Shown: piece by piece, positions 4,606 through 55,782 of the stretch
Layout: every line of letters begins with the position of its first letter
How positions within the stretch are numbered: the first letter of the stretch is position 1
DNA from: a virus
Direction: 5' to 3' (one strand)
IMG/VR virus record: IMGVR_UViG_3300045988_088382
Length of the DNA: 55,782 bases
The notes under the pieces: generated by a model
Databases searched by the model: none
Told to the model about the DNA's origin: nothing
The model's input: only the letters and a program-made list of their open reading frames with translations
Position numbers and translations under genes: made by a program

Positions 4606-7600
4606 TTAACCCCCTGTCGTTCTTGCGTACAGTCTCGCGCTCTGGCTCTGCATGCGCCCCCATGCGGCGCTGGGCTCGGCTCTGGCGACAAATTCCTTGC
4701 TGGCCAGTCTACGCATAGCCTCGGTTTGCTGCTGCTGTGCGGAAACCATGCGTTCAATGGCACGGCTCACGGCGCGCTCGATACCAGCTTCGATCTGGTC
4801 ATTGTTCGCGACGGCGGTATGCCCGTTGATCGTTCCGACCAATTCAGGACCCGCCTCGCGCGCGAGGAACATCTGACCAGCGTCCGGGAAACCGCCGGAT
4901 GCAAAAGACCGGCCAGCCGGATTACCAAAGTTTTTGAAAATCCCGGATATCTTGTTCGCAGTCTTTGTAGACCACGATTTCAACCCGTTTCGGGAGCCGC
5001 CCGATGTGTCAATATTCACACCCGGAATAAGGTTTGCAATCGCCGTCGTGACCGACGTATACCCCTCTGCAATCGCGCCTGTGATGCCGCTGATAACGCC
5101 CTGACCAATGGCGCTACCGAGTGTCTGCGCCGCCGTAATAACCGGGTTATCCGATTTATTAAGCCAGTCTTTGAGCCATACCAAGGGGCTATCTACGCTC
5201 GTAGTAAGCCACGTAAACAGGTCACTGAGGATTTTGCCAAGCGTACCAATCGGATCATTGCCAAAGGTTTCCCAGTCAATGCCGTTTTCCGCAAAGTACG
5301 CTTTGATTTCATTAACGCGGTCTTTAATCCACGTAATTACGGGTCCGAAGATGGAAACGAGCGCGTTTCTACCCTCCGCCATGATCGTGGCAATCGGCCT
5401 GAAACCGAAGGCATCCTCAAAAGCATCATCAAACGGCTGTACGATATTGGTGTCCAGCCAAACACGGATGTCGTTAAAAACCGTGCTGTTTACGATTCCG
5501 TCATACACGCCTTGAATGATGTTGCCGCCCGCGCCGTCAATATACGGCTTAAAGTACGCGACAAGATCAGACCACATCTGCGAAAGAAACGGTGTAAACA
5601 TTTGCGTCGCGGCAACTGCCGCTTCACCCAGCGTGTTAAAGATGCCCGATACAATCTCACGGGCATTCGTCGCGTTAATCAAGCCTGAAAGCTCGGTTTT
5701 GAGGTCTTCCCCGATTTTCGCCCAGTCGGTTTCCTTAAACCAGTTATTAAAGCTGTTCAATGCGCCAGTCACGGTACCGTTGATCGCCCTTCCGATGCTC
5801 GCGCCCCATCCCGGCGTATTGATGAACCCAATGAACGTATCAAAGAGAAGCGTCACTTTTCGCGAGATGATCTCGCCGAGCGCATGGAAATTGATCTGGT
5901 TCAGCCCATTAGTGACGAGCGTCGAGATCTTTTCACCGATTTTTCTGGCATCGAGCTTGTTGAGAAAAGCCGCCAGGGTCTCAATGCCCGCGCTGAGTTT
6001 CTTGCCAAGATTGTTACCTATTTCAAAGGCGTTGACTTTCTCGATAATGCCGTTGACCTTAGCGGCCAGCAGGCTTCCAAGTCCCGCCCAATCTTGAGCG
6101 TTAATCGCGTCGCGAATCTGCTTGGTGAACGCGAGGATATCAGAATCAATACTGGATTCCTCGAACATCCCACTAATAGCCCCGCTACTACCGCCTCCGC
6201 CCCCGCTGTTTTTACTGGCGATGACGTTCAGCTCATCAAAGTCGGCCAATGCACCTTTTGCGGCTTTTCCTGCGCCGGACGCTGCCGCGCCAAACGCGGT
6301 CGCTTGATTCTTGGCTTTAATAAACACGCCGGAGCCGCCGAGCGCTGCAAACAGTTGATTGATTGCGTTGAGGAACTGGACAATTACGTTAGTCGCCGCC
6401 TGAATATAAGGGACGAACATGTTAATCAGCGGAGCCGCTGCCGCGCCAATGCTGTTGCGGATCAGTTGCAGCGCTGTAGACATGCTGTTTAGGCTGCTGA
6501 CAATCTGCTTGGAAAACGCCGATCCGCTAGCCTTAGCAAAGTTATAAAGGTTTGTGATGCCTTCCTTGAGCCCCTTATTGATTTGCGTTACCATTTGTCG
6601 GAACGTGCGCGTCACCGCCAAACGGCCAAGCCGCTTGAAGAACTTTCCAATCGCCGAGTAGGCGTTCATAACAGTCGTTGCAAAACTCTTAAAGGGGTAT
6701 ATCAGCGCTTGACCGACGACTTGCCCGATTTTCAGCACGCTGCTTCCTACGCTGCTAAGGATTTTGCTCACGCCCGAGACAATGCTGCTAAAGGCGCTCT
6801 TAATCACAGAAACCGCGCTGAGGAAGACGCTCTTTAGCGCGCCCGCGACTTTTCCAGCTATGGGTATCACCGCGTTCCCGATTTTACCGAGAACGTTTAT
6901 AACCCCTGAAAAAGCGCTACCTACAGTCTTGACAGCGGACATTGCCTTGCCGCCAAAGCTGTTTTCAAACTCCAAGCGCTTGACCTTTTCCCGCAGTTTA
7001 GGAAGCGTCTCTAGGAGCTTAACCTTTTCGCGCAGATTAGCCAATTCCTGATCCACTTCTGCGGATTGAGAGTACGCGCCGGAGCGGATTGCCTCTTCCT
7101 TGGCCTGCAATTTTTGAAGCGTCAGGTTTTCGGCAATGTATTCACGCATGACTTTAAGCTCCATGCGCCATTCCTCGCCCTTGTCCTGACCGGCAAAGCC
7201 CCATTCCTTTTCTTTTTGGAGCTTCGGAAGCGTTACGTACTCGCGCTTCAAATCCTGGATGGCCTTGATCTGCTCTCGAATCGCTTTAGCATGCTCTTGA
7301 GCGGCCTTTGCGGCTTTCATCTCTTTATCGTAGGCCGCCATGTATGCCGACGGACTGCCCGATTCCATCTGCCGGCCGTACAAGCCCTTGCCGTCATCCC
7401 GGAAAGAAAAATCCTTGATCCCGGACACTCGACGGCTTTTCTGATACGACCGCGCTATGATGTCAGCGATTTCTTCGTCCGACTGCCGCTTAAAGCTAGT
7501 CCTTGCTTCCTCCTGAGCCTGCAACCCGGCGAGCCGTTCTTCGTCCTTGGCAAGCCGAAGCCTGGCTTTTTCTCTCCGCACTTCTGCCGTGCGTTCGCGA

Positions 7601-14878: not shown

Positions 14879-16510
14879 TTAGAACAGGCGCTGCATCACT
14901 CTTGGCCTATAAGACGTTTCCTCGTCCATACACACCGCCATGCACAGGCTGTCCGGCGCGTCGTCATTCTTGTTTTTGCCGACGATTTTGAAGCTGTACA
15001 CGTTCTGCATAAAAAGCTGATACGGCTTGCTCCGCTTCCCGTCATCCAAAAAGACCATTCGCTCCCGGATGTCCGGCGCTTTATCGAAAATGCGCTGCGT
15101 TTTGCCGCCGGTCGTCCTCTGCGCAACCCTCGTCGTCAGGTTGATCCGCTTTTTGCGCTTGCGCAGAATCTCGTCTACGCCCTCCGCGTAGTCCTCCGTC
15201 ATCTTCGTCGCTTCCACCTGTAACGCGCCAACGCCGTGCTCAATCACCTTATCCGCCACGAGCGCTTGTGTCACACGCTTATCTCCGTTATCGTACACAA
15301 CATCGTGCACATACAGCTCATTCCCGTACTTGAAGATGACCGGCATCGCGCAGAAGTCGCCGCCGCCCCAGCTCGGGTCAAGCGCCGCGAAGATGCGATC
15401 CGGCTCCCCTTCGGGCAGTACGCCGTTGTAATACCTGAAATCGCCAGGGCTGAACACCGCGCCGTCGCGCTCAATCGGCTCGCCCTGATACTGCGCGTTC
15501 CAGCTCGCCATGTCGTTATTCCGCTCAAACGACGCTCTGCGCTGCTGGTAGTACGACGTGTCAAAGCCTACGCCGTACTTGTAGTGGAAATTGCTCTCGT
15601 CCTTCTCGTTCAAGGCCGGAATGTTGATAATCTTTATCCGCCGCCGCGCAAACTTCGGGTTGTTCAGCACCGTGTCAATGCGCTGGCCAATGGGATCTGT
15701 CAGGCTCCACCGCGTTCCGCACCAGAGAATCTTACACCCGCTCTTTGCGCGCGTCAGAAGGTTATTATCCACCTTGCTCCACGCGGCGGTGAGCCGATCT
15801 TTGCTCATGGCTTCCTCAATGCCGCTGATCAGGTCGTCGCTCATCAGGATGCCGTTGACGTCCACAGCGCCGTTCAGCGTGGAATACAGCGATCTGCACG
15901 TCAGAGACGCATACCGCTTCCTGCGGTCGATGTTCAGCGTCTCGTCCTTGCTGTTCGTCGCCACAAGCTCCGCGCCGGGGAATATCTCATGCCATGTGTA
16001 CGTTACCGGGTCGTTGATAATCTCAAGCACGCCGTTGTAGAACGCGGATGTGATGACGTCGGAGTACGCGCAGTACAGGTTCGCCTGCTCGCTGTTCCGG
16101 CCTATCGTCCACGTCATATAGAACATCAGCAGCGACGTTTTGCCTACTCGCGGCGGACAGCTCAAAAACAATTCGTCCAGCTCGTCATCCGCGAGCGCTT
16201 GCAGGCTCTCGACAAACGGTTTAATCACTCGCCGCCGGGGCAGATAAAACCGCTCCTCCGGCTTTCTGTTCCATTCCAGATAGACCAGATAGCTGTCAAA
16301 GTCCTTAGGTGCCGCCCACAGGTATGTTTGCTTCACCAGCTCATACGCCGCCTCGTCGCCCCGCGTGGCGAGCCGCTGCGCGTAGCTTCGCGCTTTCAGG
16401 CACAGCGCCAGATCGTCGGTGTTCCGCGCCATGTCAAACAGCATGCTTATATTCTTGAGATTTGACAGGTTCGATTTCAAAAGCCTGTCGATGATTCGCG
16501 CGTCTTCCAT
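14879..16510 (-). CDS. terL: terminase large subunit
   Basis: ATG at 16510, 7 nt after GGAGGAGG; 543 aa. Walker-A-like CPPRVGKTS. Followed by the portal gene. Confidence 0.9.
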   Translation of the reverse strand: MEDARIIDRLLKSNLSNLKNISMLFDMARNTDDLALCLKARSYAQRLATRGDEAAYELVKQTYLWAAPKDFDSYLVYLEWNRKPEERFYLPRRRVIKPFVESLQALADDELDELFLSCPPRVGKTSLLMFYMTWTIGRNSEQANLYCAYSDVITSAFYNGVLEIINDPVTYTWHEIFPGAELVATNSKDETLNIDRRKRYASLTCRSLYSTLNGAVDVNGILMSDDLISGIEEAMSKDRLTAAWSKVDNNLLTRAKSGCKILWCGTRWSLTDPIGQRIDTVLNNPKFARRRIKIINIPALNEKDESNFHYKYGVGFDTSYYQQRRASFERNNDMASWNAQYQGEPIERDGAVFSPGDFRYYNGVLPEGEPDRIFAALDPSWGGGDFCAMPVIFKYGNELYVHDVVYDNGDKRVTQALVADKVIEHGVGALQVEATKMTEDYAEGVDEILRKRKKRINLTTRVAQRTTGGKTQRIFDKAPDIRERMVFLDDGKRSKPYQLFMQNVYSFKIVGKNKNDDAPDSLCMAVCMDEETSYRPRVMQRLF

Positions 16511-16533
16511 GCCCTGACCTCCTCCGTCGGCAT

Positions 16534-16566
16534 ACAAAAACAGGGGCTATGCTTTCATAGCCCCTG
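16534..16566 (-). terminator. intrinsic terminator (copy B of the two-hairpin element) between the recombinase and terL
   Basis: Minus strand: CAGGGGCTATGaaagCATAGCCCCTG followed by TTTTTGT. About 70 percent identical to copy A, including the flank atagcccctgttggctgt. Confidence 0.7.
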
Positions 16567-16577
16567 TTGGCTGTATC

Positions 16578-16597
16578 CCTCTGCCCGGTCGCGGAGG
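16578..16597 (-). other. GC hairpin (first hairpin of element copy B)
   Basis: cctctgc-ccggtc-gcggagg, in the same relative position as 13224..13243. Confidence 0.5.
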
Positions 16598-16609
16598 TCT
16601 TTTTTGTGC

Positions 16610-17368
16610 TTAATCCCTCGGCAGAATCGCTTCCTGCTGGCCTTCAACCCATTCGCTGTTCTTGCCGTAACGGTAATACCCCTGATAGGTTTTCTTGTTG
16701 TTGAGGATTCCAGCAACTGTCGCGAGCATGAACGGCTTTCCGCTTCTCGTCGGCCAGCCTTCCTCGTTCAGCTTGGCCACCACATCGCGCATCGTCAATC
16801 CCTGATCCCTAAGCTCGAAGGCGCGAATCACGGACGGTGCTTCGTTCGGGTTGACCACCAAATGCCCGTTGGAAACCGAGTAGCCCATTGGCGCCTTTCC
16901 ACCAGAATACCCGCCCTGCTCGGCTTTCTGAATCCGGCCGGCGCTGGTGCGCTTCATAATGTTCTCGCGCTCCATCTCTGCCACGCAGAGCGTGAACGCC
17001 TCTAGCATGTTCGCAAACACGCCAAACTGCCCGAAATCCTCCGCGATTGAGATCAGCTCAATGCCCTTCATCTTGAGCTGCATTTTGTAATAATAATATA
17101 CATTGATGTCTCGGGCGATGCGGTCTGACTTGGCTACGATCACCGCTTCAATCGGCGGGTTCTGCACGTCGCCGTACACAATCCGGTCAAACTCCGGTCT
17201 GTCCATCTTCGCGCCGCTCTTCGCCTCGTCCTTGTACTCGTGAACGAGCTGCATGTCGTTCCTGCGGCAGTATTCCGCAATCTGCGCGCGCTGCGCGTCG
17301 ATGCCGAACTTGTCCTCTCCAACCTGTCCTTCGGTGGATACCCGGATATAGCTCACTACGTTTTTCAC
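16610..17368 (-). CDS. serine recombinase, short form (resolvase catalytic domain plus recombinase domain, no zinc-ribbon/coiled-coil)
   Basis: 252 aa; GTG start 8 nt after GGGAGGG. Catalytic motif YIRVSTEGQ at residues 7-15; VAKSDRIARD. Recombinase-domain-like GGKAPMGYSV and ILNNKKTYQGYY. Confidence 0.9.
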   Translation of the reverse strand: MKNVVSYIRVSTEGQVGEDKFGIDAQRAQIAEYCRRNDMQLVHEYKDEAKSGAKMDRPEFDRIVYGDVQNPPIEAVIVAKSDRIARDINVYYYYKMQLKMKGIELISIAEDFGQFGVFANMLEAFTLCVAEMERENIMKRTSAGRIQKAEQGGYSGGKAPMGYSVSNGHLVVNPNEAPSVIRAFELRDQGLTMRDVVAKLNEEGWPTRSGKPFMLATVAGILNNKKTYQGYYRYGKNSEWVEGQQEAILPRD

Positions 17369-17414
17369 GGCTGTCGCCCTCCCCCAGTGATGGCTTGTGT
17401 CTGTTTATGGCATC

Positions 17415-17443
17415 AGTATAGCACGGCGTTCGTGTATTGTCAA
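17415..17443 (-). promoter_or_regulatory. consensus sigma-70-type promoter for the recombinase (and downstream terL operon)
   Basis: Minus strand TTGACA-17 nt-TATACT. The operator box GTCTGCATA lies 4 nt upstream of the -35. Confidence 0.75.
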
Positions 17444-17447
17444 GTAG

Positions 17448-17456
17448 TATGCAGAC
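17448..17456. promoter_or_regulatory. operator box TATGCAGAC (copy 1 of 4)
   Basis: The same 9-mer or its complement occurs at 17638..17646, 17669..17677 and 17692..17700. Confidence 0.6.
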
Positions 17457-17637
17457 GTTTTTATTTTTTGCGGGTATTCGGGGGATTACCCCCGCGCCTT
17501 TCGGCCTGCCCCCTTAATACCCCCGCCCCGGGATGCATCCAGGCGCGCCGACCCCACCAGGCCGGACGGATCGTATGCCCCGCGCAAGTGGCCGCCGCCG
17601 TGAAAAGTGGGCGCGATCCGCCGCCGCGTCAAAAAGT

Positions 17638-17646
17638 GTCTGCATA
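17638..17646. promoter_or_regulatory. operator box GTCTGCATA (copy 2 of 4)
   Basis: Exact complement of 17448..17456, about 190 nt away across the GC-rich spacer. Confidence 0.6.
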
Positions 17647-17661
17647 ATCTTAATAATACTA

Positions 17662-17690
17662 TTGACACGTCTGCATAACCGTAGTATACT
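17662..17690 (+). promoter_or_regulatory. consensus sigma-70-type promoter for the plus-strand operon 17743..19217
   Basis: TTGACA-17 nt-TATACT, the same hexamers as the divergent promoter. Confidence 0.8.
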
Positions 17691-17700
17691 ATATGCAGAC
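17669..17700. promoter_or_regulatory. perfect 9-bp inverted repeat operator GTCTGCATA-N14-TATGCAGAC bracketing the -10 element
   Basis: Read directly from the sequence; the palindrome is centred on TATACT. Confidence 0.7.
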
Positions 17701-17742
17701 AAAGGAAAAACACAAGACAGACAATCGAAAGGGGATCATTAT

Positions 17743-17979
17743 ATGACCACTTGCCGCAAACCCGCCCACCGCGCTTATTATGTGCGGTATCCCCGCGACT
17801 TTGCCAACGAGTACAGCCTCCGCTATACCGTTGGCGGCGCTGAACTGTCCACCGATGACGGTTGGGAGCGCATCACCCGGCGCGAGGCCGAGCGACTGGC
17901 GCGCGCTGAACGTGAGCGCCGCCGCTGGGAGCCAGAGCGCAGCGGATACGCTGACGCGGATATATACTCCGCCGATTAA
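17743..17979 (+). CDS. hypothetical Arg/Glu-rich protein (78 aa)
   Basis: ATG at 17743 after GAAAGGGGA. MTTCRKPAHRAYYVRYPRDF...RREAERLARAERERRRWE. First gene after the consensus promoter. Confidence 0.65.
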   Translation: MTTCRKPAHRAYYVRYPRDFANEYSLRYTVGGAELSTDDGWERITRREAERLARAERERRRWEPERSGYADADIYSAD

Positions 17980-18022
17980 CAACAACAACAACAAAGACGA
18001 AATAGAAAGAGAGGATTGCACC

Positions 18023-18739
18023 ATGAAAGCGTATACAGAAATCTTGAAGGATATCGCCACCGCCCGCGCGGGCATAGTTGACACCACGAAGGCCGAAAAA
18101 GACTTTACGCGGAAAGCGATGATTACTGCGCGGAAATCCGGAACTGATGCGGAATTTGACGCGGCCGAGGCCGCGTACAAGGCCGCGGAAGAAAAGTATG
18201 TAGCCGAGTGTAAGCACAACGAAGACCTGCAAATAGCGCTTGAAATCCTGAAAGATAACGCCGCACAAGCGTTTTTCGCGGAAAATATCGGCGTCATCTG
18301 CGATATTTGGAACAAATACGCGGGAAAGCCCCACGGGGAAAAGACCTCTGACAAAATCCGCAAAGAATTGTTTGCGGCTTTGGGTGTCCGGGTTTGGATC
18401 GGCAACAAATACAATGACGCGAGCGTTACCTGCTATTTCGACGCGCCCGCCCCATTCCGTGGCCTTGAATTTTGCGCAACCCGCTCCAACGGGGAAAACG
18501 TCCCCGCGTTGATCGGTAACAAAATCCAGTCACTATGCCCGGAGGTTTTCCGCGTCTACAACTGTGGCGCGTATGTGGACGACGTGCCCGCCCACGTGCA
18601 GGCCATCCGAGAGGCGTACGACAAAGCCCGAGCGGCTGAAGCCGCTTTTGCGGCTGCCGTGTCGGATTATAACGCTTTGACGCGCGGCAACATTGCCCAG
18701 GCGTCCACCCGTGAGGGCGTGAAACGCTGGTTTCTTTAA
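18023..18739 (+). CDS. hypothetical protein (238 aa)
   Basis: ATG at 18023 after AGAGAGGA; MKAYTEILKDIATARAG...; no family recognised. Confidence 0.7.
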   Translation: MKAYTEILKDIATARAGIVDTTKAEKDFTRKAMITARKSGTDAEFDAAEAAYKAAEEKYVAECKHNEDLQIALEILKDNAAQAFFAENIGVICDIWNKYAGKPHGEKTSDKIRKELFAALGVRVWIGNKYNDASVTCYFDAPAPFRGLEFCATRSNGENVPALIGNKIQSLCPEVFRVYNCGAYVDDVPAHVQAIREAYDKARAAEAAFAAAVSDYNALTRGNIAQASTREGVKRWFL

Positions 18740-18760
18740 TTTTTGATGGGGGGTTATATC

Positions 18761-19039
18761 ATGCCCAAATCATACACCCCGACGCGCGAGCAGCGCGCGG
18801 AGCTGGAAAGCCTCGCCTATTGGATAGCGGATCGAGCTTGGAGCCGCGAGCGTGGCGAGCTGGACGAGCACGAGGATCAACGCACGAATAACACGATCCG
18901 CGCCATCTTTGACGCGCTGGATCGGCTGCGCGTCCCGTATTGGGCGCAAAACGCCGTGATCTGCTGGGCGGGGGATTGGCGGCGCACGATGTGCGAGGAT
19001 CTGCGGGACGCGATGCGCGCCCGGTCAATAATCTTGTAA
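18761..19039 (+). CDS. hypothetical protein (92 aa)
   Basis: ATG at 18761 after GGGGGG; MPKSYTPTREQRAELESLAYW... Confidence 0.6.
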   Translation: MPKSYTPTREQRAELESLAYWIADRAWSRERGELDEHEDQRTNNTIRAIFDALDRLRVPYWAQNAVICWAGDWRRTMCEDLRDAMRARSIIL

Positions 19040-19061
19040 TTTTCAGATAGGGGGCATTGCG

Positions 19062-19217
19062 ATGAAATTTGAGCGATTCCCAAAACGCTGCTATTTATGC
19101 GGTAAACCATTTTCACAAGCCGCCAAGGCTATCCCTGTAATAGGCGGGAAATGCGCGCCCGGTTATATTTGCCCCGCCTGCTATGCCAAACTATTTAAGA
19201 CGCCCGAAAGGCTATAA
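19062..19217 (+). CDS. small zinc-ribbon protein (51 aa)
   Basis: MKFERFPKRCYLCGKPF...GYICPACYAKLF with two CxxC pairs. ATG after GGGGCA. Not in the ORF track (under 60 aa). Confidence 0.5.
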   Translation: MKFERFPKRCYLCGKPFSQAAKAIPVIGGKCAPGYICPACYAKLFKTPERL

Positions 19218-19254
19218 GAAGGGGAAAAATGAAATCCTCGTATTCCAAAATTGA

Positions 19255-19277
19255 GGGGTATTGATACCCCTTTTTTT
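19255..19277 (+). terminator. intrinsic terminator of the plus-strand operon
   Basis: ggggta-ttga-tacccc followed by ttttttt. Confidence 0.8.
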
Positions 19278-19302
19278 ATGCCCTCGTTATTCGCCGCCTA
19301 TT

Positions 19303-19380
19303 TGCCCGTGTAGCGGTCTTGCGCGTCCCGATGGTATCTTGGTACCACCCCGACACGCAAGGCCGCTACACGGGCATTTT
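19303..19380 (+). terminator. very long hairpin (25-bp arms, 2 mismatches) followed by TTTT
   Basis: tgcccgtgtagcggtcttgcgcgtc ...24 nt... gacacgcaaggccgctacacgggca tttt. The loop contains a KpnI-like mini-palindrome. Confidence 0.6.
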
Positions 19381-19408
19381 AGACCGTTTCACGGCGTGCC
19401 CCTGACCG

Positions 19409-19665
19409 GCAGCAGGGCTTCACCAGCTCCAGCAGCTCCAGCAGCGCCCGGAACGTCGGCAGGGGCTTCACCAGCTCCAGCAGCGCCCGGATCGTCGGCA
19501 GTGGCTCCACCAGCTCCACCAGCGCCCGGATCGTCGGCAGGGGCTCCACCAGCTCCACCAGCGCCCGGATCGTCGGCAGGGGCTACCAGGACGGCAGGGG
19601 CTTCACCAGCTCCACCAGCTCCACCGGCGCCCGGATCGTCGGCAGCGGCTTCCAGGGCGGCAGGG
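19409..19665. repeat. about 6 tandem copies of a GC-rich 39-nt unit (ggcaggggctccaccagctccaccagcgcccggatcgtc)
   Basis: Read directly. Both strands are open across it only because of the repeat. Confidence 0.85.
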
Positions 19666-19830
19666 GCTACCCGACAACGGCGCGCAACCACAGCCGCGCG
19701 GGCGCAATCGAGCACCGCCCCACGCGCGCATCTGCGCAGCTACGCGGGCACACATAGCTGTGCGAACGCATACGCGCGCAGCCGCACAAGCGATCTCACG
19801 TACAGCCGCGCTGGAGGTGTACGCGCGCAA

Positions 19831-19902
19831 CCACACAGCCGTTCGGGCGCATAGCCACGCGGCCGTTCGGGCACATAGCCACACAGCCGTTCGGACGTAT
19901 AG
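19831..19902. repeat. 3 x 24-nt tandem repeat ccacacagccgttcgggcgcatag
   Basis: Units at 19831, 19855 and 19879 with 2-4 substitutions each. Confidence 0.85.
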
Positions 19903-20113
19903 CCGCTTGATTTTTACGCCTGTCTGTAAACACCTTCGGCAGCATCGCGCGGCGCTTTCCCGGAAAGCAAGCGATAAGACCAAGCGATGGCGTGAAAACA
20001 AGCGATGACGCGATCCCCGCGCCCTCACAGGCTGTTGGTTCACTGCTCAGACAGTTTCCTGCCCGTTCTAGGCGTTTTCCTGCGCCGCGTGATATTCTTT
20101 ATCATCCTACGCG

Positions 20114-20139
20114 GCTAAACGCTCAGACGGGCGTTTAGC
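20114..20139. other. 9-bp perfect hairpin gctaaacgc-tcagacgg-gcgtttagc
   Basis: Read directly. Confidence 0.6.
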
Positions 20140-20153
20140 TACTCTCACGCGCT

Positions 20154-20297
20154 CACGCCGTGGGATTTTGAAAACCATACGCCCACGCCGTGGGATTTTG
20201 AAAATCGCGCATGCCGTGGGCTTTTGAAAACTGTACGCTCACGCCGTGGGATTTTGAAAAGCCCATCAGGCAAAATCATCCTGTGGGCTTTTGATTT
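20154..20297. repeat. 5 direct copies of CGTGGG(A/C)TTTTGA boxes (4 as cacgccgtgggattttgaaaa), 26-39-nt spacing, abutting the terS stop
   Basis: Copies start at 20154, 20184, 20210, 20240 and 20279. The last forms part of the terS terminator. Confidence 0.85.
20251..20290 (-). terminator. intrinsic terminator after terS
   Basis: Minus strand: AGCCCACAGG-atgattttg-CCTGATGGGCT followed by TTTTCAAAAT. Confidence 0.7.
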
Positions 20298-20943
20298 ATT
20301 CAATTGTGTAGTCTGTGTCAACGTCCATCTGCATAAACTCGTCTGGCTCTGGCAAATTCTTTGCGATTTCCTCCGGCGTAAGCGGTTCATTGCTGTCATC
20401 CGCGCTTGCCGAAACAACGATTTCCTGACGGTCACTCATGCCGTAATAGTTCTTAGAACGGAAGATATATGTCACCGGATTCATCTTGCCGGATTCGGTC
20501 AAAACTGCGTCTGTGGCGTGTATCATCTCTAAAGCTTTTTTAGCGATGAGTTTTGTACTTATACCCGGTAAAGGCTCATCACGGAATCCCTTATTCATTC
20601 CACTCCGCCAAGCCCTGAGCGTTTCGGACGTATACCCGCAATACAAACCAAGTTCCTCAACCGTTGGAGGGATGGCGCGATTTTGAATTTGATTGAAATA
20701 GTCATCAAGACGCTCTAGCAGCTCGGCGTTGCTCTGTACAGGCTTCATCAAAAATGCCTTCCGCAGATGGCCTATCGTATCGCCGAGAAGGTTCTTTGTC
20801 TCCGGCTTATCCAGATCCGCATAGCCTTGAGGGGCTAAGGATTCACGGGGCTTAAATTCAAACTCCGTCACCGCGTCTGGGCTTTTCAGAAAATTGCTTC
20901 CCCGATTGCTTACGCGGTTAGAGTTGTCACGCTTCGTCGCCAC
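20296..20943 (-). CDS. terS: terminase small subunit (gp3-type DNA packaging protein)
   Basis: 215 aa; GTG 7 nt after GAAGGAGGTG. Pattern PPTVEELGLYCGYTSETLRAWRSG ... NPVTYIFRSKNYYGMSD resembles the HTH plus IF.LKN..GW.D signature of small terminases. Confidence 0.7.
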   Translation of the reverse strand: MATKRDNSNRVSNRGSNFLKSPDAVTEFEFKPRESLAPQGYADLDKPETKNLLGDTIGHLRKAFLMKPVQSNAELLERLDDYFNQIQNRAIPPTVEELGLYCGYTSETLRAWRSGMNKGFRDEPLPGISTKLIAKKALEMIHATDAVLTESGKMNPVTYIFRSKNYYGMSDRQEIVVSASADDSNEPLTPEEIAKNLPEPDEFMQMDVDTDYTIE

Positions 20944-20958
20944 GTCGCGTCACCTCCT

Positions 20959-21321
20959 TCACACATAGAAAAAATGCAGCCCCTTGATCGCTTTACGTCC
21001 GTAACTTTGGAGCGACTTGTTGATATCACCGGGAGCGATCCCGAAAGCCTTTGAAGCCTCGGACACGCTATCGTATGTCGTATTGTTTTCCCAGCAATGC
21101 ACGGGCTTACGTCTTCCGTCTTGTCTTGGGAGGCTCTTTCGTTCCTCAAGCAGCAAATACCTTCTTTCCCGCAAATATTTTTCAAATAAATTTTCCGGGG
21201 TCATTTTGCAAACCGCCTTTCTCTTCATTTTCCGGGCGCGGCAATCCAATCCGCATCGTGTCCCGAAATGGCCGTTTTCGGGCACTTTCGAGCCTGAAAT
21301 TTTAGTTATGTTTCTATCCAT
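20959..21321 (-). CDS. NUMOD1-like HTH DNA-binding protein (start uncertain: 21321, 21228 or 21204)
   Basis: C-terminal HCWENNTTYDSVSEASKAFGIAPGDINKSLQS...GLHFFYV resembles the DNA-binding module of homing endonucleases. First gene of the terS operon. Confidence 0.5.
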   Translation of the reverse strand: MDRNITKISGSKVPENGHFGTRCGLDCRARKMKRKAVCKMTPENLFEKYLRERRYLLLEERKSLPRQDGRRKPVHCWENNTTYDSVSEASKAFGIAPGDINKSLQSYGRKAIKGLHFFYV

Positions 21322-21348
21322 ACTTTGACCAAGGCTGAAACGGGGTCT

Positions 21349-21804
21349 GGTGTAGGGTGGTGTAGGGTTTACCCAAGGGGCCCTAACGCGGGGCTAGGGG
21401 CAGATGTAATTAGCTTTTAGGGTGTGCAGACCCTACACCGCCTACACCAACTTCACGCCGCTCCGTAAAAAGTTCTGTGCAGACCCTACACCGCCTACAT
21501 TTTTAGTGCATCTTACACAAAGGATTGTCTACCCGGATTGTGCATCTGGTTTTTCAAATTAACAACTGCTCCCGTGACTACCCTACACCGCCTACACCGC
21601 TACCCTACACCTTGCCTACACCTTGCCTACACCACCCTACACCACCCTACATCTTATAACAAGTGGCCTCAATCAAAAGTTTGTGCAAATGCCTACACAC
21701 CCTACACCAGCGCATATTCGCACGAAAAAGTTTGTGCAAATGCCTACACTGCCTACACCCGTTTTATCTGTAACGCATGTCATTTGGTGTAGGGTGGTGT
21801 AGGC
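21349..21804. repeat. array L1: 19 CCTACAC(C)-type boxes (15 forward, 4 inverted at the two edges) plus two aaaagtttgtgcaaatgcctacac units
   Basis: Counted by eye. The 24-nt left edge ggtgtagggtggtgtagggtttac equals the reverse complement of 44960..44983. ORF-free 540-bp gap. Confidence 0.9.
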
Positions 21805-21861
21805 AAATTTTCCCGAAAAACCGCCCCTCAAACAGGGTCAAAACTCGTTTTATCGGGCTAG

Positions 21862-22068
21862 TTATTTATCCTCGGAATTACTTATCGTTTCATTCTCTTT
21901 TTTCTGGCATTCCCGCGCCTGTTTGATTAGGGAAATCGTCTCCTCGAAGAAGCTGTTTGACATAAACACGAGCGCCTTAACCGCCCGGCGTTGACCGACG
22001 GCTCTACCCGCCATGAACCCGGCCAGCAAAAGGCCGATGTCCGTAATCACCCAAAGCATCAGATTCAT
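21862..22068 (-). CDS. small membrane protein
   Basis: ATG at 22068 (ATGA overlap with the upstream stop). N-terminal hydrophobic helix LMLWVITDIGLLLAGFMAG. Confidence 0.55.
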   Translation of the reverse strand: MNLMLWVITDIGLLLAGFMAGRAVGQRRAVKALVFMSNSFFEETISLIKQARECQKKENETISNSEDK

Positions 22069-22322
22069 GCGCAATCACTCTCCACTTTCAGTCTCTTAAA
22101 CTCCTTAAAGGCGTAGGCTTGGCTTGACGTCGTGAGAAGCCATTTATCGCCCTTCCAGACGTGCCAGAGCGGCAGGCGACCTAACGGGTTATCCGTTCTG
22201 GCGGCGCTGTAGAACAGCCTTAAATCCTTGTAAACCTCCACTCGCGCCAGCCCAGGCTTTCCGTCTGTCCGACTGAGATCTCCGTTAAACGTCGCCGCCC
22301 ATCTTTCAAGCATCTTTCCCAT
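22065..22322 (-). CDS. hypothetical protein (85 aa)
   Basis: ATG 4 nt after the SPFH stop; RBS GAGGG. Confidence 0.55.
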   Translation of the reverse strand: MGKMLERWAATFNGDLSRTDGKPGLARVEVYKDLRLFYSAARTDNPLGRLPLWHVWKGDKWLLTTSSQAYAFKEFKRLKVESDCA

Positions 22323-25822: not shown

Positions 25823-26743
25823 TCATCCCTCCGTTTCATCAAAAATCCCAAGCTGCAACTCGTCTTTGCTCTCTCCGCCTTTTCCGATCCACCAGCGCAA
25901 GACCGATTCGCCGTCCGTCCAATGCCTATTGATGGGTTTTCCCGCTTTTCGCCGTGCGTCCAGCATCTCGTCAAAGGTGCGAATATAAAATGACTTGAAT
26001 TGTGGGAAAAACTCAAGCTCTCTTTGCATGCTCGCAGAGCCGCCCAGCGGGCAGGCCACGCAGCCAAGCCGTTTGAATCCGAAATCGTATAGCTCGCAAT
26101 ACGGTACGTTGTAGAGCCGTATGAACTCCCACACGTCTTCGTCCGTCCAGTCAATAATCGGATTGACAAGCGTTTCGTGTGTCCGATAGCACATCTCAAC
26201 CATTCTGCGGCTCTCGTCGTTATCGGTATTGAGTATCAGCCCGTTTTTGCTCGTTCGATTCGGCTCTGCACCGCTCAAATCCGCTACGTTGTGTAGGCTT
26301 TTGGGCACTTTTGGAATCGTCACAATCCCTTGGTTGTTTTTTCTGTTCCTGCTTTCTGCCCATCTTACGCCCGTAACCACGACGTGCCCGATTCCCTTTG
26401 GTTCTTTTAGTTCGGCGCAACAATAGCGTTGTGTCCTCAGTGGCGGGAATTGCTTTTTGACGATCAGCTCTCGCATGGTATATTCAGGCTTTTCGATTTC
26501 TGTTTTGGGGTGATTCTTCCGGATGAAGCGTACAAGCTGTGGCGGGTCAACTGTCGTCGCGTTGTAGTGAGCGTCAAACCTAACCCCTGCCATCTCGCAG
26601 AGCTTGACGACACATGAGCTGTCTTTCCCGCCGCTGTCTGCGACATAGTACCCCTCTTCCGGCTCAAACGCCCGCAGCCGGTCTATTGCCGTCTGCACCT
26701 TGTCCCGCTTTTGCCCGAAAAGGTCGTACTCAACTAACGCCAT
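25823..26743 (-). CDS. phosphoadenosine phosphosulfate (PAPS) reductase family protein
   Basis: 306 aa. PP-loop-like YYVADSGGKDSS near the N-terminus. RBS GGAGGGG. Confidence 0.75.
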   Translation of the reverse strand: MALVEYDLFGQKRDKVQTAIDRLRAFEPEEGYYVADSGGKDSSCVVKLCEMAGVRFDAHYNATTVDPPQLVRFIRKNHPKTEIEKPEYTMRELIVKKQFPPLRTQRYCCAELKEPKGIGHVVVTGVRWAESRNRKNNQGIVTIPKVPKSLHNVADLSGAEPNRTSKNGLILNTDNDESRRMVEMCYRTHETLVNPIIDWTDEDVWEFIRLYNVPYCELYDFGFKRLGCVACPLGGSASMQRELEFFPQFKSFYIRTFDEMLDARRKAGKPINRHWTDGESVLRWWIGKGGESKDELQLGIFDETEG

Positions 26744-28187
26744 CCGCTATCCCCTCCATCACATACAGTACACATGGTAAAGCCATGCCGTTACCCCACA
26801 TCTCGTATCTCGCGCTGTCGCTTCCCGACACGCCGTCCTCCCACCAATCGGGGAAGCCTTGCAGCCGGCAGCACTCAAGCGGCGTAAGCCGGCGGACAAA
26901 GTAGCGCCGCGCCTTTTTCAGCCAACAGGCGATGTCGGGCACCGTGTTGCTTCCGCTTGGAGCGGCTTTGAGCGTCGGCGATACCGTTTCCGAGTAGCCG
27001 ATTCCCCCGGCCTTTGCGCCCTGTCCGCCCATAAATGCGCAGATCATCTGTTGATCGTGTGCGCATGTCAGCGTTCCCGCCGTATCGGTCATGTAAATCT
27101 GGTTGAGCTGGCCGTTTCCGACGGCCAATGCCGTGTAGTCTGTAATACGGTTCTCGTGGTCGCCGGTCAGCGTCGGCACGATTTTTCCGTCTCCGTTGCC
27201 TCGCGCGTCATAAACGACGGGATTCTGGTAGTTCAGGCTATACCCGCCGTTTTCTTTGGCTTGCAGCGTCCCGCTGATTTCTTCGCCCAACCGCATGTTT
27301 CGGCAATCAACTGAGTAAGCTACCACGTTCCCGCCTTGATTGCACTCCGGCGAACCGGTGAACGTGTCGAGCGTCCGCGCCACATTGCGCTCGCGGAAAC
27401 AGCTATCCGGCGTTCGGCTTTTCATGCTGTTGCTTGTCGCTCCCGTTATGTCAAAAACTCGATAGTCTCTACCAGCGCTTCCCACAGCATCAGCGGTAGC
27501 TTCTTTCCCCGCTTCTCGGCTCTGCGCAAAATTCCCTCGCAAGCCCTCGCGCTTAAAAAGTATTTCTCCGGCGCGTCCACCTCTAAGATCGCAGACAAGG
27601 AAGATTCGGCGGCGTCTTTGGGGGACTCCCCAGTATTGGGCGTCCAGCACTCGCCAGGCAATCGAATAGCCCCCTCCCACGATGTAGCCGGCGTTTCGCC
27701 AAGCAAGTCGGTCTGTTCTGCCTTTTCTCGCAGGTTCAGGAACATTATCTCCGTCGCCACCGGCGGCTTCGACGAACGCACGCAGGACGGCGAGGAAGTC
27801 TCGTCCCTGATTGCTTGATAGCGCGCCCGGCACGTTTTCCCAGACGCCGTATCTTGGGTATTTTCCATGTGTAGCCTCCCGCATTTCCATGATGATCCGG
27901 ATCGCTTCAAAGAAAAGGCTGCTCCGTTTTCCGGCAATCAAGCCTTTTTGCGTTCCGGCGACGCTCAAATCCTGACAAGGCGAGCCGAATGTAACGATAT
28001 CCACCGGCTCGATCTCCGCGCCGTTGATCTTCGTGATGTCACCGAGATGTTTCATTTCGGGGAAGTTATTTTTCGTCACCCGGATGGGGTACGGCTCGAT
28101 CTCGCTTGCCCAGACGGGCGTAATGCCGCACATCGTTGCCGCCAGCGGGCAAGTGCCAGAGCCGTCAAACAGGCTGCCCAGCGTCAT
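26730..28187 (-). CDS. dcm: DNA (cytosine-5)-methyltransferase
   Basis: 485 aa; motif I LFDGSG, motif IV GSPCQDLS, motif VI ENVPG. Confidence 0.9.
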   Translation of the reverse strand: MTLGSLFDGSGTCPLAATMCGITPVWASEIEPYPIRVTKNNFPEMKHLGDITKINGAEIEPVDIVTFGSPCQDLSVAGTQKGLIAGKRSSLFFEAIRIIMEMREATHGKYPRYGVWENVPGALSSNQGRDFLAVLRAFVEAAGGDGDNVPEPARKGRTDRLAWRNAGYIVGGGYSIAWRVLDAQYWGVPQRRRRIFLVCDLRGGRAGEILFKREGLRGNFAQSREAGKEATADAVGSAGRDYRVFDITGATSNSMKSRTPDSCFRERNVARTLDTFTGSPECNQGGNVVAYSVDCRNMRLGEEISGTLQAKENGGYSLNYQNPVVYDARGNGDGKIVPTLTGDHENRITDYTALAVGNGQLNQIYMTDTAGTLTCAHDQQMICAFMGGQGAKAGGIGYSETVSPTLKAAPSGSNTVPDIACWLKKARRYFVRRLTPLECCRLQGFPDWWEDGVSGSDSARYEMWGNGMALPCVLYVMEGIADGVS

Positions 28188-28385
28188 TTAGTTATCCTCC
28201 ATCGCGTCCAAATCATCCACCAACTCTAGAAGATGCGCTCTAACCTGTTTCACGCCGCGCTTGATAGCCTCCTTGGAGTGGGTTTTTCGCCCATAGCATC
28301 CCCATCCCGGTTTATAGTGTTCAACGGCTTCAGACAACTCTTGCACTTCCAGCGCAATCATGCGTATTCTTTCTTTTGCTGTCAT
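28188..28385 (-). CDS. hypothetical protein (65 aa)
   Basis: ATG at 28385 in ATGA overlap with the MazG stop; RBS GGAGG. Confidence 0.5.
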   Translation of the reverse strand: MTAKERIRMIALEVQELSEAVEHYKPGWGCYGRKTHSKEAIKRGVKQVRAHLLELVDDLDAMEDN

Positions 28386-28687
28386 TTCCCATGCCTCCAT
28401 TCACGCCCTCGGTTGATCTCCATCTTTGCCCGCACCGCCTTGTCAATGTCGATGCCCAGATACCCAGCGGCAGATAGCGCCGTGATGATAACGTCCGCAA
28501 GTTCCTCGGTGTAATGTTCCGGCTCGTGCACAGCCTTGATGGTTTCCGTCAATTCGTCGCTGATGAGCCGCGAACAGTAAAGCCTTTTTATTACATCGCC
28601 CGCTTCGCCGATTTCAAGGCAATTCCACAGCCCATGTTTCACCGCGTCATCGTAGATTTCGTTGCGCAATTCGTTCAAATCGTTCAT
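28382..28687 (-). CDS. mazG: MazG-like nucleotide pyrophosphohydrolase
   Basis: 101 aa; ELADVIITALSAAGYLGIDIDKAVRAKMEINRGR is typical of the small phage MazG family. Confidence 0.75.
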   Translation of the reverse strand: MNDLNELRNEIYDDAVKHGLWNCLEIGEAGDVIKRLYCSRLISDELTETIKAVHEPEHYTEELADVIITALSAAGYLGIDIDKAVRAKMEINRGREWRHGK

Positions 28688-29112
28688 TTCGTGCCTCCTC
28701 TAAAAATAACCACCATCGACGGAAAAGGCGCGGACGCTTTCGCGTTGCCAAACTTGATCCGCCCTTTCAAAAACCTAATTTCCGCCTGATGATAAATGTA
28801 GTCGTGAAAGGCTCGGGTGTCTGTTCTCGCAGGAATGAGCATCACCACCAGCGCACCTTCCTCAGCCTCGTCATGCGCTTTCTTGATCCACTTCGGGAGT
28901 TCTCGCCCGTAGGGCGGATTGCAAAACACCCTTTTACCCCCCCAATTTTGGGAAAGGCCATTCTCCGCCTTGGTGAAGTGTTCCGCGCATTTCGCGTTCT
29001 CGTGTGTGCAGCACGGGTCAAGGTTGAAATGGAACTCCGCGTCCAGCTCGTCAAAAAGAGCCTGCGGCGTTGCCCACTCGACGGTTGCGCTTGAAAATAA
29101 ACAGCTATTCAT
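28684..29112 (-). CDS. dam: DNA N6-adenine methyltransferase (phage Dam family)
   Basis: 142 aa; VEWATPQALFDELD, FNLDPC, catalytic NPPY, then PARTDT and GRIKF. Confidence 0.85.
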   Translation of the reverse strand: MNSCLFSSATVEWATPQALFDELDAEFHFNLDPCCTHENAKCAEHFTKAENGLSQNWGGKRVFCNPPYGRELPKWIKKAHDEAEEGALVVMLIPARTDTRAFHDYIYHQAEIRFLKGRIKFGNAKASAPFPSMVVIFRGGTK

Positions 29113-55590: not shown

Positions 55591-55782
55591 TTAAGCATAC
55601 ACAATCTCGCTCATTTCGAGGATGCATTGCAGCAGGGTTTCGTTCTGGTTTTCAAGCGTCTTGATGCGTTCTTCCTGCGTCGGCTTCGGTTCTCCCGGTT
55701 CCGGCACTTCCGGCTCGACGTACACGCTGCCGTCGTCGGAGAGCTGCACCGCGTTGTCAAGGGTGCGGTAAACGGTCGTGTA
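55591..55782 (-). CDS. C-terminal part of the junction-spanning ORF (same gene as 1..217)
   Basis: The frame is continuous with 1..217 once the 55-bp overlap is collapsed (354 nt in total). It ends ...TQEERIKTLENQNETLLQCILEMSEIVYA with TAA at 55591. Confidence 0.6.
   Translation of the reverse strand, partial: YTTVYRTLDNAVQLSDDGSVYVEPEVPEPGEPKPTQEERIKTLENQNETLLQCILEMSEIVYA
55728..55782. repeat. terminal direct repeat copy 2 (identical to 1..55)
   Basis: Exact 55/55 identity. Confidence 0.95.

Follow-up and report, generated by a model that had tools for sequence, protein, structure and literature searches.

The DNA analyzed here (the window) is the 55,782-nucleotide virus record IMGVR_UViG_3300045988_088382 of IMG/VR, and the element in question is the 3.8-kb interval that separates its small and large terminase genes, terS and terL, and that holds a gene for a serine recombinase (rec) together with a four-gene operon on the opposite strand. 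A 55-bp direct terminal repeat (positions 1-55 and 55728-55782) marks a circular assembly, and the window is therefore a complete phage genome of ~55.7 kb. It is the genome of a temperate phage with its own tyrosine integrase (phrog_1, 3.5e-56), which lies away from the terS-terL gap in a lysogeny module at 41 to 46 kb, together with two repressor-like proteins and an antirepressor. Along the minus strand, from high to low coordinates, the order is terS, the interval, terL, an SPP1-type portal gene (3e-54), and then head and tail genes.

An initial annotation of the window had described the interval as a self-contained module that splits terS from terL on the same strand, and every element that it named is present (Table 1). 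The interval is indeed transcriptionally self-contained, with its own promoters and terminators. The hairpins that follow terS, the cargo operon (two), and rec are far more stable than those of shuffled sequence. Two divergent promoters each match the sigma-70 consensus at 11 of 12 positions (plus strand, 17662-17690; minus strand, 17443-17415) and share a 9-bp operator, GTCTGCATA, of which four exact copies lie within 260 bp and one elsewhere in the 55.8 kb.

Table 1. Features of the terS-terL interval and its flanking genes (aa, amino acids; ORF, open reading frame; RD, recombinase domain; dG, folding free energy; z, z-score against shuffled sequence; pLDDT, predicted local distance difference test)
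Feature	Coordinates	Strand	Details
terL, large terminase	14879..16510	-	phrog_38 at 9e-53; first gene past the rec terminator
Intrinsic terminator, rec to terL	16539..16568	-	13-bp stem, then UUUUUGU; dG -32.6, z -7.35
rec, 252-aa serine recombinase	16610..17368	-	Pfam Resolvase (PF00239) 8e-28, Recombinase (PF07508) 5e-11
Predicted rec specificity island	16709..16921	-	aa 150-220; beta-hairpin and three helices of the RD
rec promoter	17399..17456	-	-35 17438-17443, -10 17415-17420; flanked by inverted half-sites
Half-sites at rec promoter	17399-17407, 17448-17456		GTCTGTTTA and TATGCAGAC, respectively; inverted, spacing N40
G+C-rich spacer between site clusters	17457..17637	.	A-rich tract at end, just upstream of rec -35
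Distal site cluster and cargo promoter	17638..17700	+	-35 17662-17667, -10 17685-17690
Hypervariable cargo operon	17743..19217	+	four ORFs; transcribed away from rec
Cargo ORF, 78 aa	17743-17979	+	
Cargo ORF, 238 aa	18023-18739	+	model pLDDT 88.9
Cargo ORF, 92 aa	18761-19039	+	
Cargo ORF, 51 aa	19062-19217	+	two CxxC pairs; weak zinc-ribbon matches only
Cargo operon end	19253..19376	+	terminator 19253-19272; 74-nt hairpin 19303-19376, dG -60, z -8
Non-coding repeat patchwork	19426..20294	.	arrays with periods of 39, 24, and 30 nt
Arrays of the patchwork	19426-19668, ~19689-19906, 20154-20294		39-nt array; 24-nt array; five CAYGCCGTGGGMTTTTGA copies directly after terS
terS terminator hairpin	20257..20292	-	3 nt past the terS stop; dG -17.8, z -4.1; then UUUUC
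terS, small terminase, GP3_package type	20296..20943	-	215 aa; assigned on family evidence

When the interval is placed into the context of related phages, the recombinase gene and the operon behave differently. Relatives of rec are encoded on at least 495 viral contigs. Among the viral loci found with rec as query that have enough downstream sequence (n = 91; the loci of relatives are designated by L-numbers), the order rec, terL, portal is kept in all 91, including loci whose type of terL is only 33% identical to that of the window. The same order holds in nearly all genome loci with enough sequence. These come from genomes and metagenome-assembled genomes of Oscillospiraceae, Ruminococcaceae, Lachnospiraceae, and relatives, and they include integrated prophages inside contigs of 110 to 534 kb, in which terS, the site clusters, rec, and terL stay contiguous. 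As such, rec does not appear to be used for integration, and none of the genome loci examined has a prophage interrupted at the site cluster.

A complementary view is gained with terL as query. Of 38 non-redundant loci, 15 carry rec, 9 carry a different serine recombinase of ~186 amino acids in the same place, and 14 carry neither, while the distance between terS and terL is at least 2 kb in all 26 non-redundant relatives that show both genes and have sufficient upstream sequence. Among cultured phages the nearest is Clostridium phage Maintenon (L239), whose gap of 2.65 kb contains hypothetical genes and two tRNAs (tRNA-Trp and tRNA-Gln, at 4819-4967 of that genome); a 214-amino-acid protein encoded in this gap was considered as a candidate recombinase and rejected. 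Cargo-less minimal forms also occur (L191 and L202), with only 313 to 347 bp between terS and rec, which is then followed by terL. Both the consistently wide gap and these minimal forms speak against the idea that the unit as a whole was inserted or is parasitic on packaging. Loci with similar rec tend only weakly to have similar neighboring genes (Spearman coefficients of 0.09 with terL and 0.25 with terS, compared with 0.39 to 0.57 among terS, terL, and portal), and rec therefore seems to evolve as a module of its own. Judged from the comparison of loci, rec is a conserved resident upstream of terL, the cargo operon alone is truly variable, and in a large group of temperate siphophages that infect gut Clostridia the packaging region ordinarily has this layout, with terS and terL apart.

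The domain composition of rec was compared with that of the established groups of serine recombinases. It has the Resolvase-type catalytic domain with the nucleophilic serine and the conserved arginines of the superfamily, followed by helix E and a PF07508 RD, as in the large serine recombinases. It lacks the zinc ribbon with embedded coiled coil of that group and its length of ~450 to 650 amino acids; the C-terminal helix-turn-helix and the length of ~180 to 200 amino acids that characterize small resolvases and invertases are equally absent. Aligned with the CcrB model, rec covers positions 7 to 248 of 542 and stops at residue 252. Its AlphaFold (AF2) model matches the Bxb1, SprA, and phiC31 integrases and also the resolvase fold, the RD seen bound to DNA in 4kis is matched at 2.0 A by the last ~110 residues, and the model shows no further domain. 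Residues R9, S11, D82, R83, R86, E133, and R134 are invariant across 18 diverse members.

The PHROGs label for this family is "integrase." More than 1,100 homologues are found at E <= 1e-10, with lengths of 248 to 264 amino acids among the matches listed, and ~100 clusters at 50% identity are found at E <= 1e-30, mostly of 236 to 270 amino acids and ahead of true integrases in the list. The family comparison indicates that rec is neither the integrase of this phage nor a fragment of one and that ~250 amino acids is the family norm. It thus shares the catalytic domain, helix E, and the RD, by sequence and by fold, with the large serine recombinases (those of Bxb1, phiC31, SPbeta SprA, and Listeria A118-type phages and CcrB), but it ends after the RD, keeps a fixed size, and shows no sign of chromosomal integration. 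A DNA search of deposited phages returned nothing related. When the same collection was searched with the rec protein, a single unannotated contig reached 60% identity; the other matches, at 33% or less, were true integrases, and no annotated phage had a close homologue. PADLOC gave no match to rec.

Two further observations concern the place that rec occupies. The ~186-amino-acid proteins in the same slot before terL are of the small resolvase/invertase type (L018-L030 and L064), and in L102-L107 and L139 a 195-amino-acid serine recombinase follows the ~250-amino-acid one with overlapping stop and start codons, giving a tandem pair before terL.

In addition to the inverted pair at the rec promoter, a 32-bp palindrome, GTCTGCATA-N14-TATGCAGAC (17669-17700), spans the -10 of the cargo promoter, and a third copy of GTCTGCATA (17638-17646) lies 31 bp upstream. 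When ten near-identical genomes are aligned, two operator versions appear at both promoters, each paired with one allele of rec: GTCTGCATA/TATGCAGAC with allele A, that of the window, and GTGCCTATA/TATAGGCAC with allele B, that of L002, the latter with GTGTCTTTAC at the rec promoter, where the bracket forms a perfect inverted repeat, GTGTCTTTAC-N38-GTAAAGACAC. All 35 amino acid differences between the two alleles fall within residues 150 to 220, a segment in which nucleotide identity is 50 to 68%, compared with 98 to 100% in its flanks. Between the window and L002 or L005, identity is 98 to 100% across terL, the first 149 codons of rec, and its last 32 codons, and three islands stand out at 50 to 78%: rec codons 150 to 220 and, as the other two, the operator sets of the rec and the cargo promoters. 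The central spacer is 90 to 93% identical in this comparison and ~90 to 95% identical across both allele groups, and which allele of the first cargo gene is present does not depend on the three islands. From fold similarity and from published structures of integrase complexes, we take the varying segment to be the part of the RD that touches DNA.

The same association is detectable at greater distance. Among 68 non-redundant loci, the automatically called motif is common to 85% of pairs with RD identity of at least 90% and to 2% of pairs below 40%, while at least 90% identity in the catalytic domain goes with a common motif in only 51% of pairs. Several motif swaps are independent of one another (for example, L011/L015/L056 versus L202 and L159 versus L178). 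The geometry is more constant than the motif: the distal cluster recurs with unrelated motifs in many lineages in the orientation (-)(+)(+) and with start-to-start spacings of ~23 to 25 and 31 bp, an inverted pair lies at the rec promoter, and the two clusters are 150 to 370 bp apart across lineages. Examples are AAACGTAAA in L081, TTATCGTAA in L167, and AAGTGTAAA in the cargo-less L191; similar G+C-rich palindromes precede rec in the cargo-less L191 and L196. A near-consensus promoter of host type precedes rec in 107 of 126 distinct members, compared with 2 of 126 shuffles. The sites may represent a res-like array, with clusters of conserved geometry that co-vary with a protein domain, although the clusters are farther apart than in known res sites. 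Such co-variation is the pattern expected for a DNA-binding protein and its sites evolving together. As the operator co-varies with residues 150 to 220 and the geometry outlasts changes of motif, rec most likely binds at both promoters. No second operator cluster was found within the window; two near-matches in a GGTGTAGG array upstream of terS were rejected as a second location, as they do not co-vary with the rec allele.

The cargo operon presents a different picture. The initial annotation recognized no family among the four plus-strand proteins, and none of them has an above-threshold match in Pfam, PHROGs, NCBIfam, or PADLOC. The 238-amino-acid protein is modeled as a helical bundle with a small sheet, a confident fold for which Foldseek returned no PDB match and only uncharacterized viral proteins. 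Among phages with 99 to 100% identical rec, the cargo is swapped for sets of 77/136/149, 76/130/147/149, or 80/238/151 amino acids, with exchange junctions in near-identical phages at ~17770 and ~19239-19267. The first nine codons (MTTCRKPAH, 17743-17770) are common to otherwise unrelated alleles of the first cargo gene, and because the mosaic junction falls directly after them, the 5' leader and gene start seem to act as part of the conserved platform. On this comparative evidence the plus-strand operon is accessory cargo. The earlier view of the interval as an inserted or hitch-hiking unit therefore stands for the cargo, which is exchanged from ~17770 to ~19240-19267, but not for rec, which is conserved in 91 of 91 loci.

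A census of the slot across relatives gave 671 ORFs in ~299 clusters, counts that are approximate because greedy ORF calling in G+C-rich DNA gives spurious ORFs. Recognizable genes include antirepressors (Bro-N, Rha, and AntA with an ANT domain), RtcB, ArdA, a DNA methyltransferase, Mrr-type nucleases, RusA, and GIY-YIG. The commonest is an FtsK/SpoIIIE-like P-loop ATPase of ~245 amino acids (PF01580, 7e-20) that adjoins terS on the opposite strand in 16 loci, among them L011, L014, L016, L033, L036 (6787-7530, minus strand), L038, L039, L056, and L081. We also considered a cassette platform resembling an integron and rejected it: the intergenic spacers of 21 to 43 bp hold only ribosome-binding sites and no inter-cassette sites, the junctions lie in ordinary conserved flanks, and the enzyme is a serine, not a tyrosine, recombinase. 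A closer parallel is given by the accessory, moron, and defense hotspots of phages, such as those of P2-like and P4-like elements, where a fixed slot has content of fast turnover. The slot described here resembles them in its fixed position and in its anti-restriction, methylase, nuclease, and RNA-repair genes, but differs in that it splits terS from terL and, in most lineages, adjoins a conserved recombinase whose sites overlap the cargo promoter.

The reading that we favor, with a probability of roughly 60%, is that the interval consists of a conserved rec unit and an accessory-gene slot within the usual packaging region and that rec acts as a self-regulating, site-binding recombinase. The rec unit comprises, in ~1.1 kb, two clusters of 9-bp sites, the near-consensus promoter, the rec gene, and its terminator, and always lies upstream of terL in the same orientation and beside the slot. 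Through the RD, dimers of rec could occupy the inverted 9-bp half-sites that flank one or other promoter or overlap with it, and in this way limit the synthesis of rec itself and gate the cargo promoter, much as Tn3/gamma-delta resolvase does at res between tnpA and tnpR. Given the co-variation, we regard it as quite probable that rec binds and represses both promoters.

The comparison with Tn3-type systems (also Sin and beta) is instructive in both directions. In each case a serine recombinase has its multi-part binding region, which for rec is a predicted one, in the divergent promoter region beside its own gene, so that binding would give autoregulation as well as a recombination site, and the sites in the window can be likened to res in having inverted 9-bp motifs, differing spacers, and an extra direct copy. 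The differences are that rec would bind through the RD of a large integrase where resolvase uses a C-terminal helix-turn-helix, that its clusters are 150 to 370 bp apart and not within ~120 bp, and that rec resides in the packaging region of a phage and not in a transposon or plasmid.

In addition to binding, rec may recombine DNA at the 32-bp palindrome (17669-17700). The strict conservation of the catalytic residues argues for such an activity, and we see about an even chance that rec carries out some recombination reaction. As the genome has a single site cluster, the partners would be two copies of this cluster, which could be present on a dimer or a concatemer or, with headful packaging, within the terminal redundancy, and the outcome would be resolution or circularization of phage DNA. 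In phage P1, Cre/loxP forms a system of this kind: a recombinase and a single site near the packaging genes of a temperate phage, with host-type promoters, Cre being a tyrosine recombinase. If packaging starts near terS, a site just downstream of terS would be the one most often duplicated, and the likeness to P1 is that of a single site beside the packaging genes, where terminal redundancy would most often include it. Rec differs as a serine recombinase, and by this analogy a purpose like that of Cre/lox can be suggested only tentatively. It is equally speculative that the two functions are joined in one compact new system, in which a zinc-ribbon-less serine recombinase of ~250 amino acids and a multi-part site both circularize or resolve the genome and switch accessory genes, with swaps of 70 residues retargeting the 9-bp motifs.

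Several considerations weigh against this interpretation. With only two specificity alleles among the close relatives, few events underlie the cleanest co-variation; across loci, motifs were called automatically and with noise. The proximal half-sites are spaced N40, not N14, and may therefore be operators only. The window phage has genes for an annealing protein resembling Gp2.5 (2.7e-52) and for an exonuclease, which could circularize redundant ends, so that dedicated circularization may be needless. Since 14 of the 38 non-redundant terL relatives have the split layout without any recombinase, rec is dispensable for packaging as such. Finally, the mosaic junctions of the cargo lie ~70 bp away from the palindrome and not at it.

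A different and, in our view, rather unlikely interpretation is that rec is now purely a transcription factor, which represses the cargo and perhaps controls read-through into terL, and that no biologically relevant recombination takes place. It would fit with sites that overlap the -10 or -35 of both promoters and with L191, where rec overlaps the start of terL and the rec promoter probably feeds terL as well. The antirepressor genes found under the divergent promoter in many relatives also recall Mnt, Arc, and Ant of phage P22, whose immI region is a self-contained unit that runs against the late genes around it, is controlled through operators, and has a ribbon-helix-helix regulator. The likeness to immI lies in the form of the module and in the antirepressor cargo of relatives; it does not extend to the presumed regulator, which here is a recombinase, or to the cargo of the window, which is not recognizably an antirepressor. 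What speaks for recombination and against regulation only is that the catalytic residues are invariant in a family of ~100 clusters at 50% identity, which would be unexpected for a mere DNA binder, and that the distal site cluster persists in cargo-less forms.

Somewhat less credible still is the proposal of a selfish mobile cassette, made up of the whole interval or of no less than the rec unit, that hitch-hikes in phage genomes and targets the slot upstream of terL. Its own promoters and terminators, the weak correlation of rec with its neighbors, the occurrence of different serine recombinases in the same slot, and the relatives without rec, some with abutting terS and terL, could all be understood in this way. 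The weak correlation may, however, partly reflect the narrow range of rec identities and the swapping of domains within rec. Moreover, there are no repeats at element ends and no target duplication, the distance between rec and terL varies from overlap to 2.6 kb with other genes between them in some loci, and the cargo is exchanged at ordinary conserved flanks. As to the refutation that the initial annotation proposed, namely that all relatives carry the interval and none has an empty site, the outcome is divided: close relatives all carry it and show no empty site, but in the deep relatives L058 and L059 terS overlaps terL.

A DNA invertase, flipping either the ~260-bp segment between the clusters or the cargo as an on/off switch for cargo or late genes, seems very improbable. 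Many lineages do have two inverted-repeat sites ~230 to 370 bp apart, each centered between a -35 and a -10, and an assembly gap falls exactly in this segment in L087, a metagenome scaffold with a run of N in the G+C-rich spacer upstream of the rec promoter; this run may represent population heterogeneity or poor coverage of a G+C-rich hairpin. A recombinase-controlled switch that works by inversion nevertheless finds no support in the data, as no inverted arrangement occurs among ~150 assembled loci, an all-versus-all reverse-strand search upstream of rec gave local palindromes only, the orientation of the cargo is always the same, and the two sites of the window differ in spacing (N14 versus N40). 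Least probable of all is a second integrase or an excision factor using a host attachment site, to which the kinship with large serine integrases and the PHROGs label would point. Against it stand the lack of both zinc ribbon and coiled coil in rec, the lysogeny module at 41 to 46 kb with its tyrosine integrase, repressors, and antirepressor, and the contiguity of the locus in integrated prophages.

The arrangement favored here, a serine recombinase with res-like sites combined with an accessory-gene hotspot, appears to be widespread and, as far as our searches show, undescribed; literature searches turned up no account of a site-specific recombinase that constantly occupies the terS-terL region. 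The evidence for such a recombinase within the packaging cluster spans hundreds of gut phage genomes, and counting every PF07508 or PF00239 protein of a prophage as an integrase will mislabel phages of this kind. The slot beside rec could serve as a predictable place in which to look for anti-defense and regulatory genes in phages of uncultured Clostridia. The family also provides small recombinases with predicted cognate sites, in which natural swaps map the determinants of DNA recognition to residues 150 to 220, and this could be of use for recombinase engineering.

The assignment of the 215-amino-acid protein as the small terminase, which the initial annotation had made, is borne out by family evidence. 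The protein of the window alone scores 7.8e-5 against GP3_package, below the Pfam cut-off, but 23 of 24 homologues match this family (best 4.6e-15), the family profile also matches the phage protein 2ao9, and the homologues in L058 and L059 overlap the start of terL; together these observations support the assignment. The ATG of terL is preceded by the ribosome-binding site GGAGGAGG. In L115, L118, L123, L129, L130, and L133, the terL ORFs are ~2.7 kb long, ~1 kb above the usual length, which suggests an intein or other insertion in terL.

The ~1-kb patchwork of repeats between the cargo operon and terS, previously noted as free of ORFs, is so in relatives as well, as gene callers find no gene in the equivalent stretch of L084 and L085. 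Its copy number differs between relatives, which are ~82 to 85% identical there, and more distant phages, L081 for example, lack it; that it serves pac function or terS binding would be only a guess. The 74-nt hairpin after the cargo operon is 85 to 95% conserved in close relatives only, a variation too low for a covariation test, and an Rfam scan of 16300-22100 gave chance-level matches only.

Minor observations were made on the region upstream of rec in other loci. A subgroup from Dorea, Catenibacterium, and Criibacterium (L210, L216, L217, L219, L220, and L225) has a palindrome of ~110 to 119 bp located ~55 to 170 bp upstream of rec, with two direct and two inverted copies of a 9-mer such as AAGTAGTTG. 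In L006 and L153, ~19 tandem copies of an 11-nt unit resembling CCTGCCTGCTG are found 200 to 420 bp upstream of rec; as the period is not a multiple of three, the array is non-coding, and G+C-rich tandem arrays seem to be recurrent in terS-terL gaps.

Elsewhere in the window, the early region (25823-29112) encodes one protein that resembles PAPS reductase (phrog_424), two that resemble DNA methyltransferases, and one that resembles a pyrophosphatase; their functions may be in modifying DNA or the pool of nucleotides. At 21340-21810, upstream of a gene for a 120-amino-acid protein that precedes terS, GGTGTAGG(G/C) is densely repeated, with more than 20 copies that face in both directions. This array includes perfect inverted repeats of 19 to 22 nt, is kept whichever rec allele is present, and may represent binding sites of a late regulator, the pac region, or an origin.

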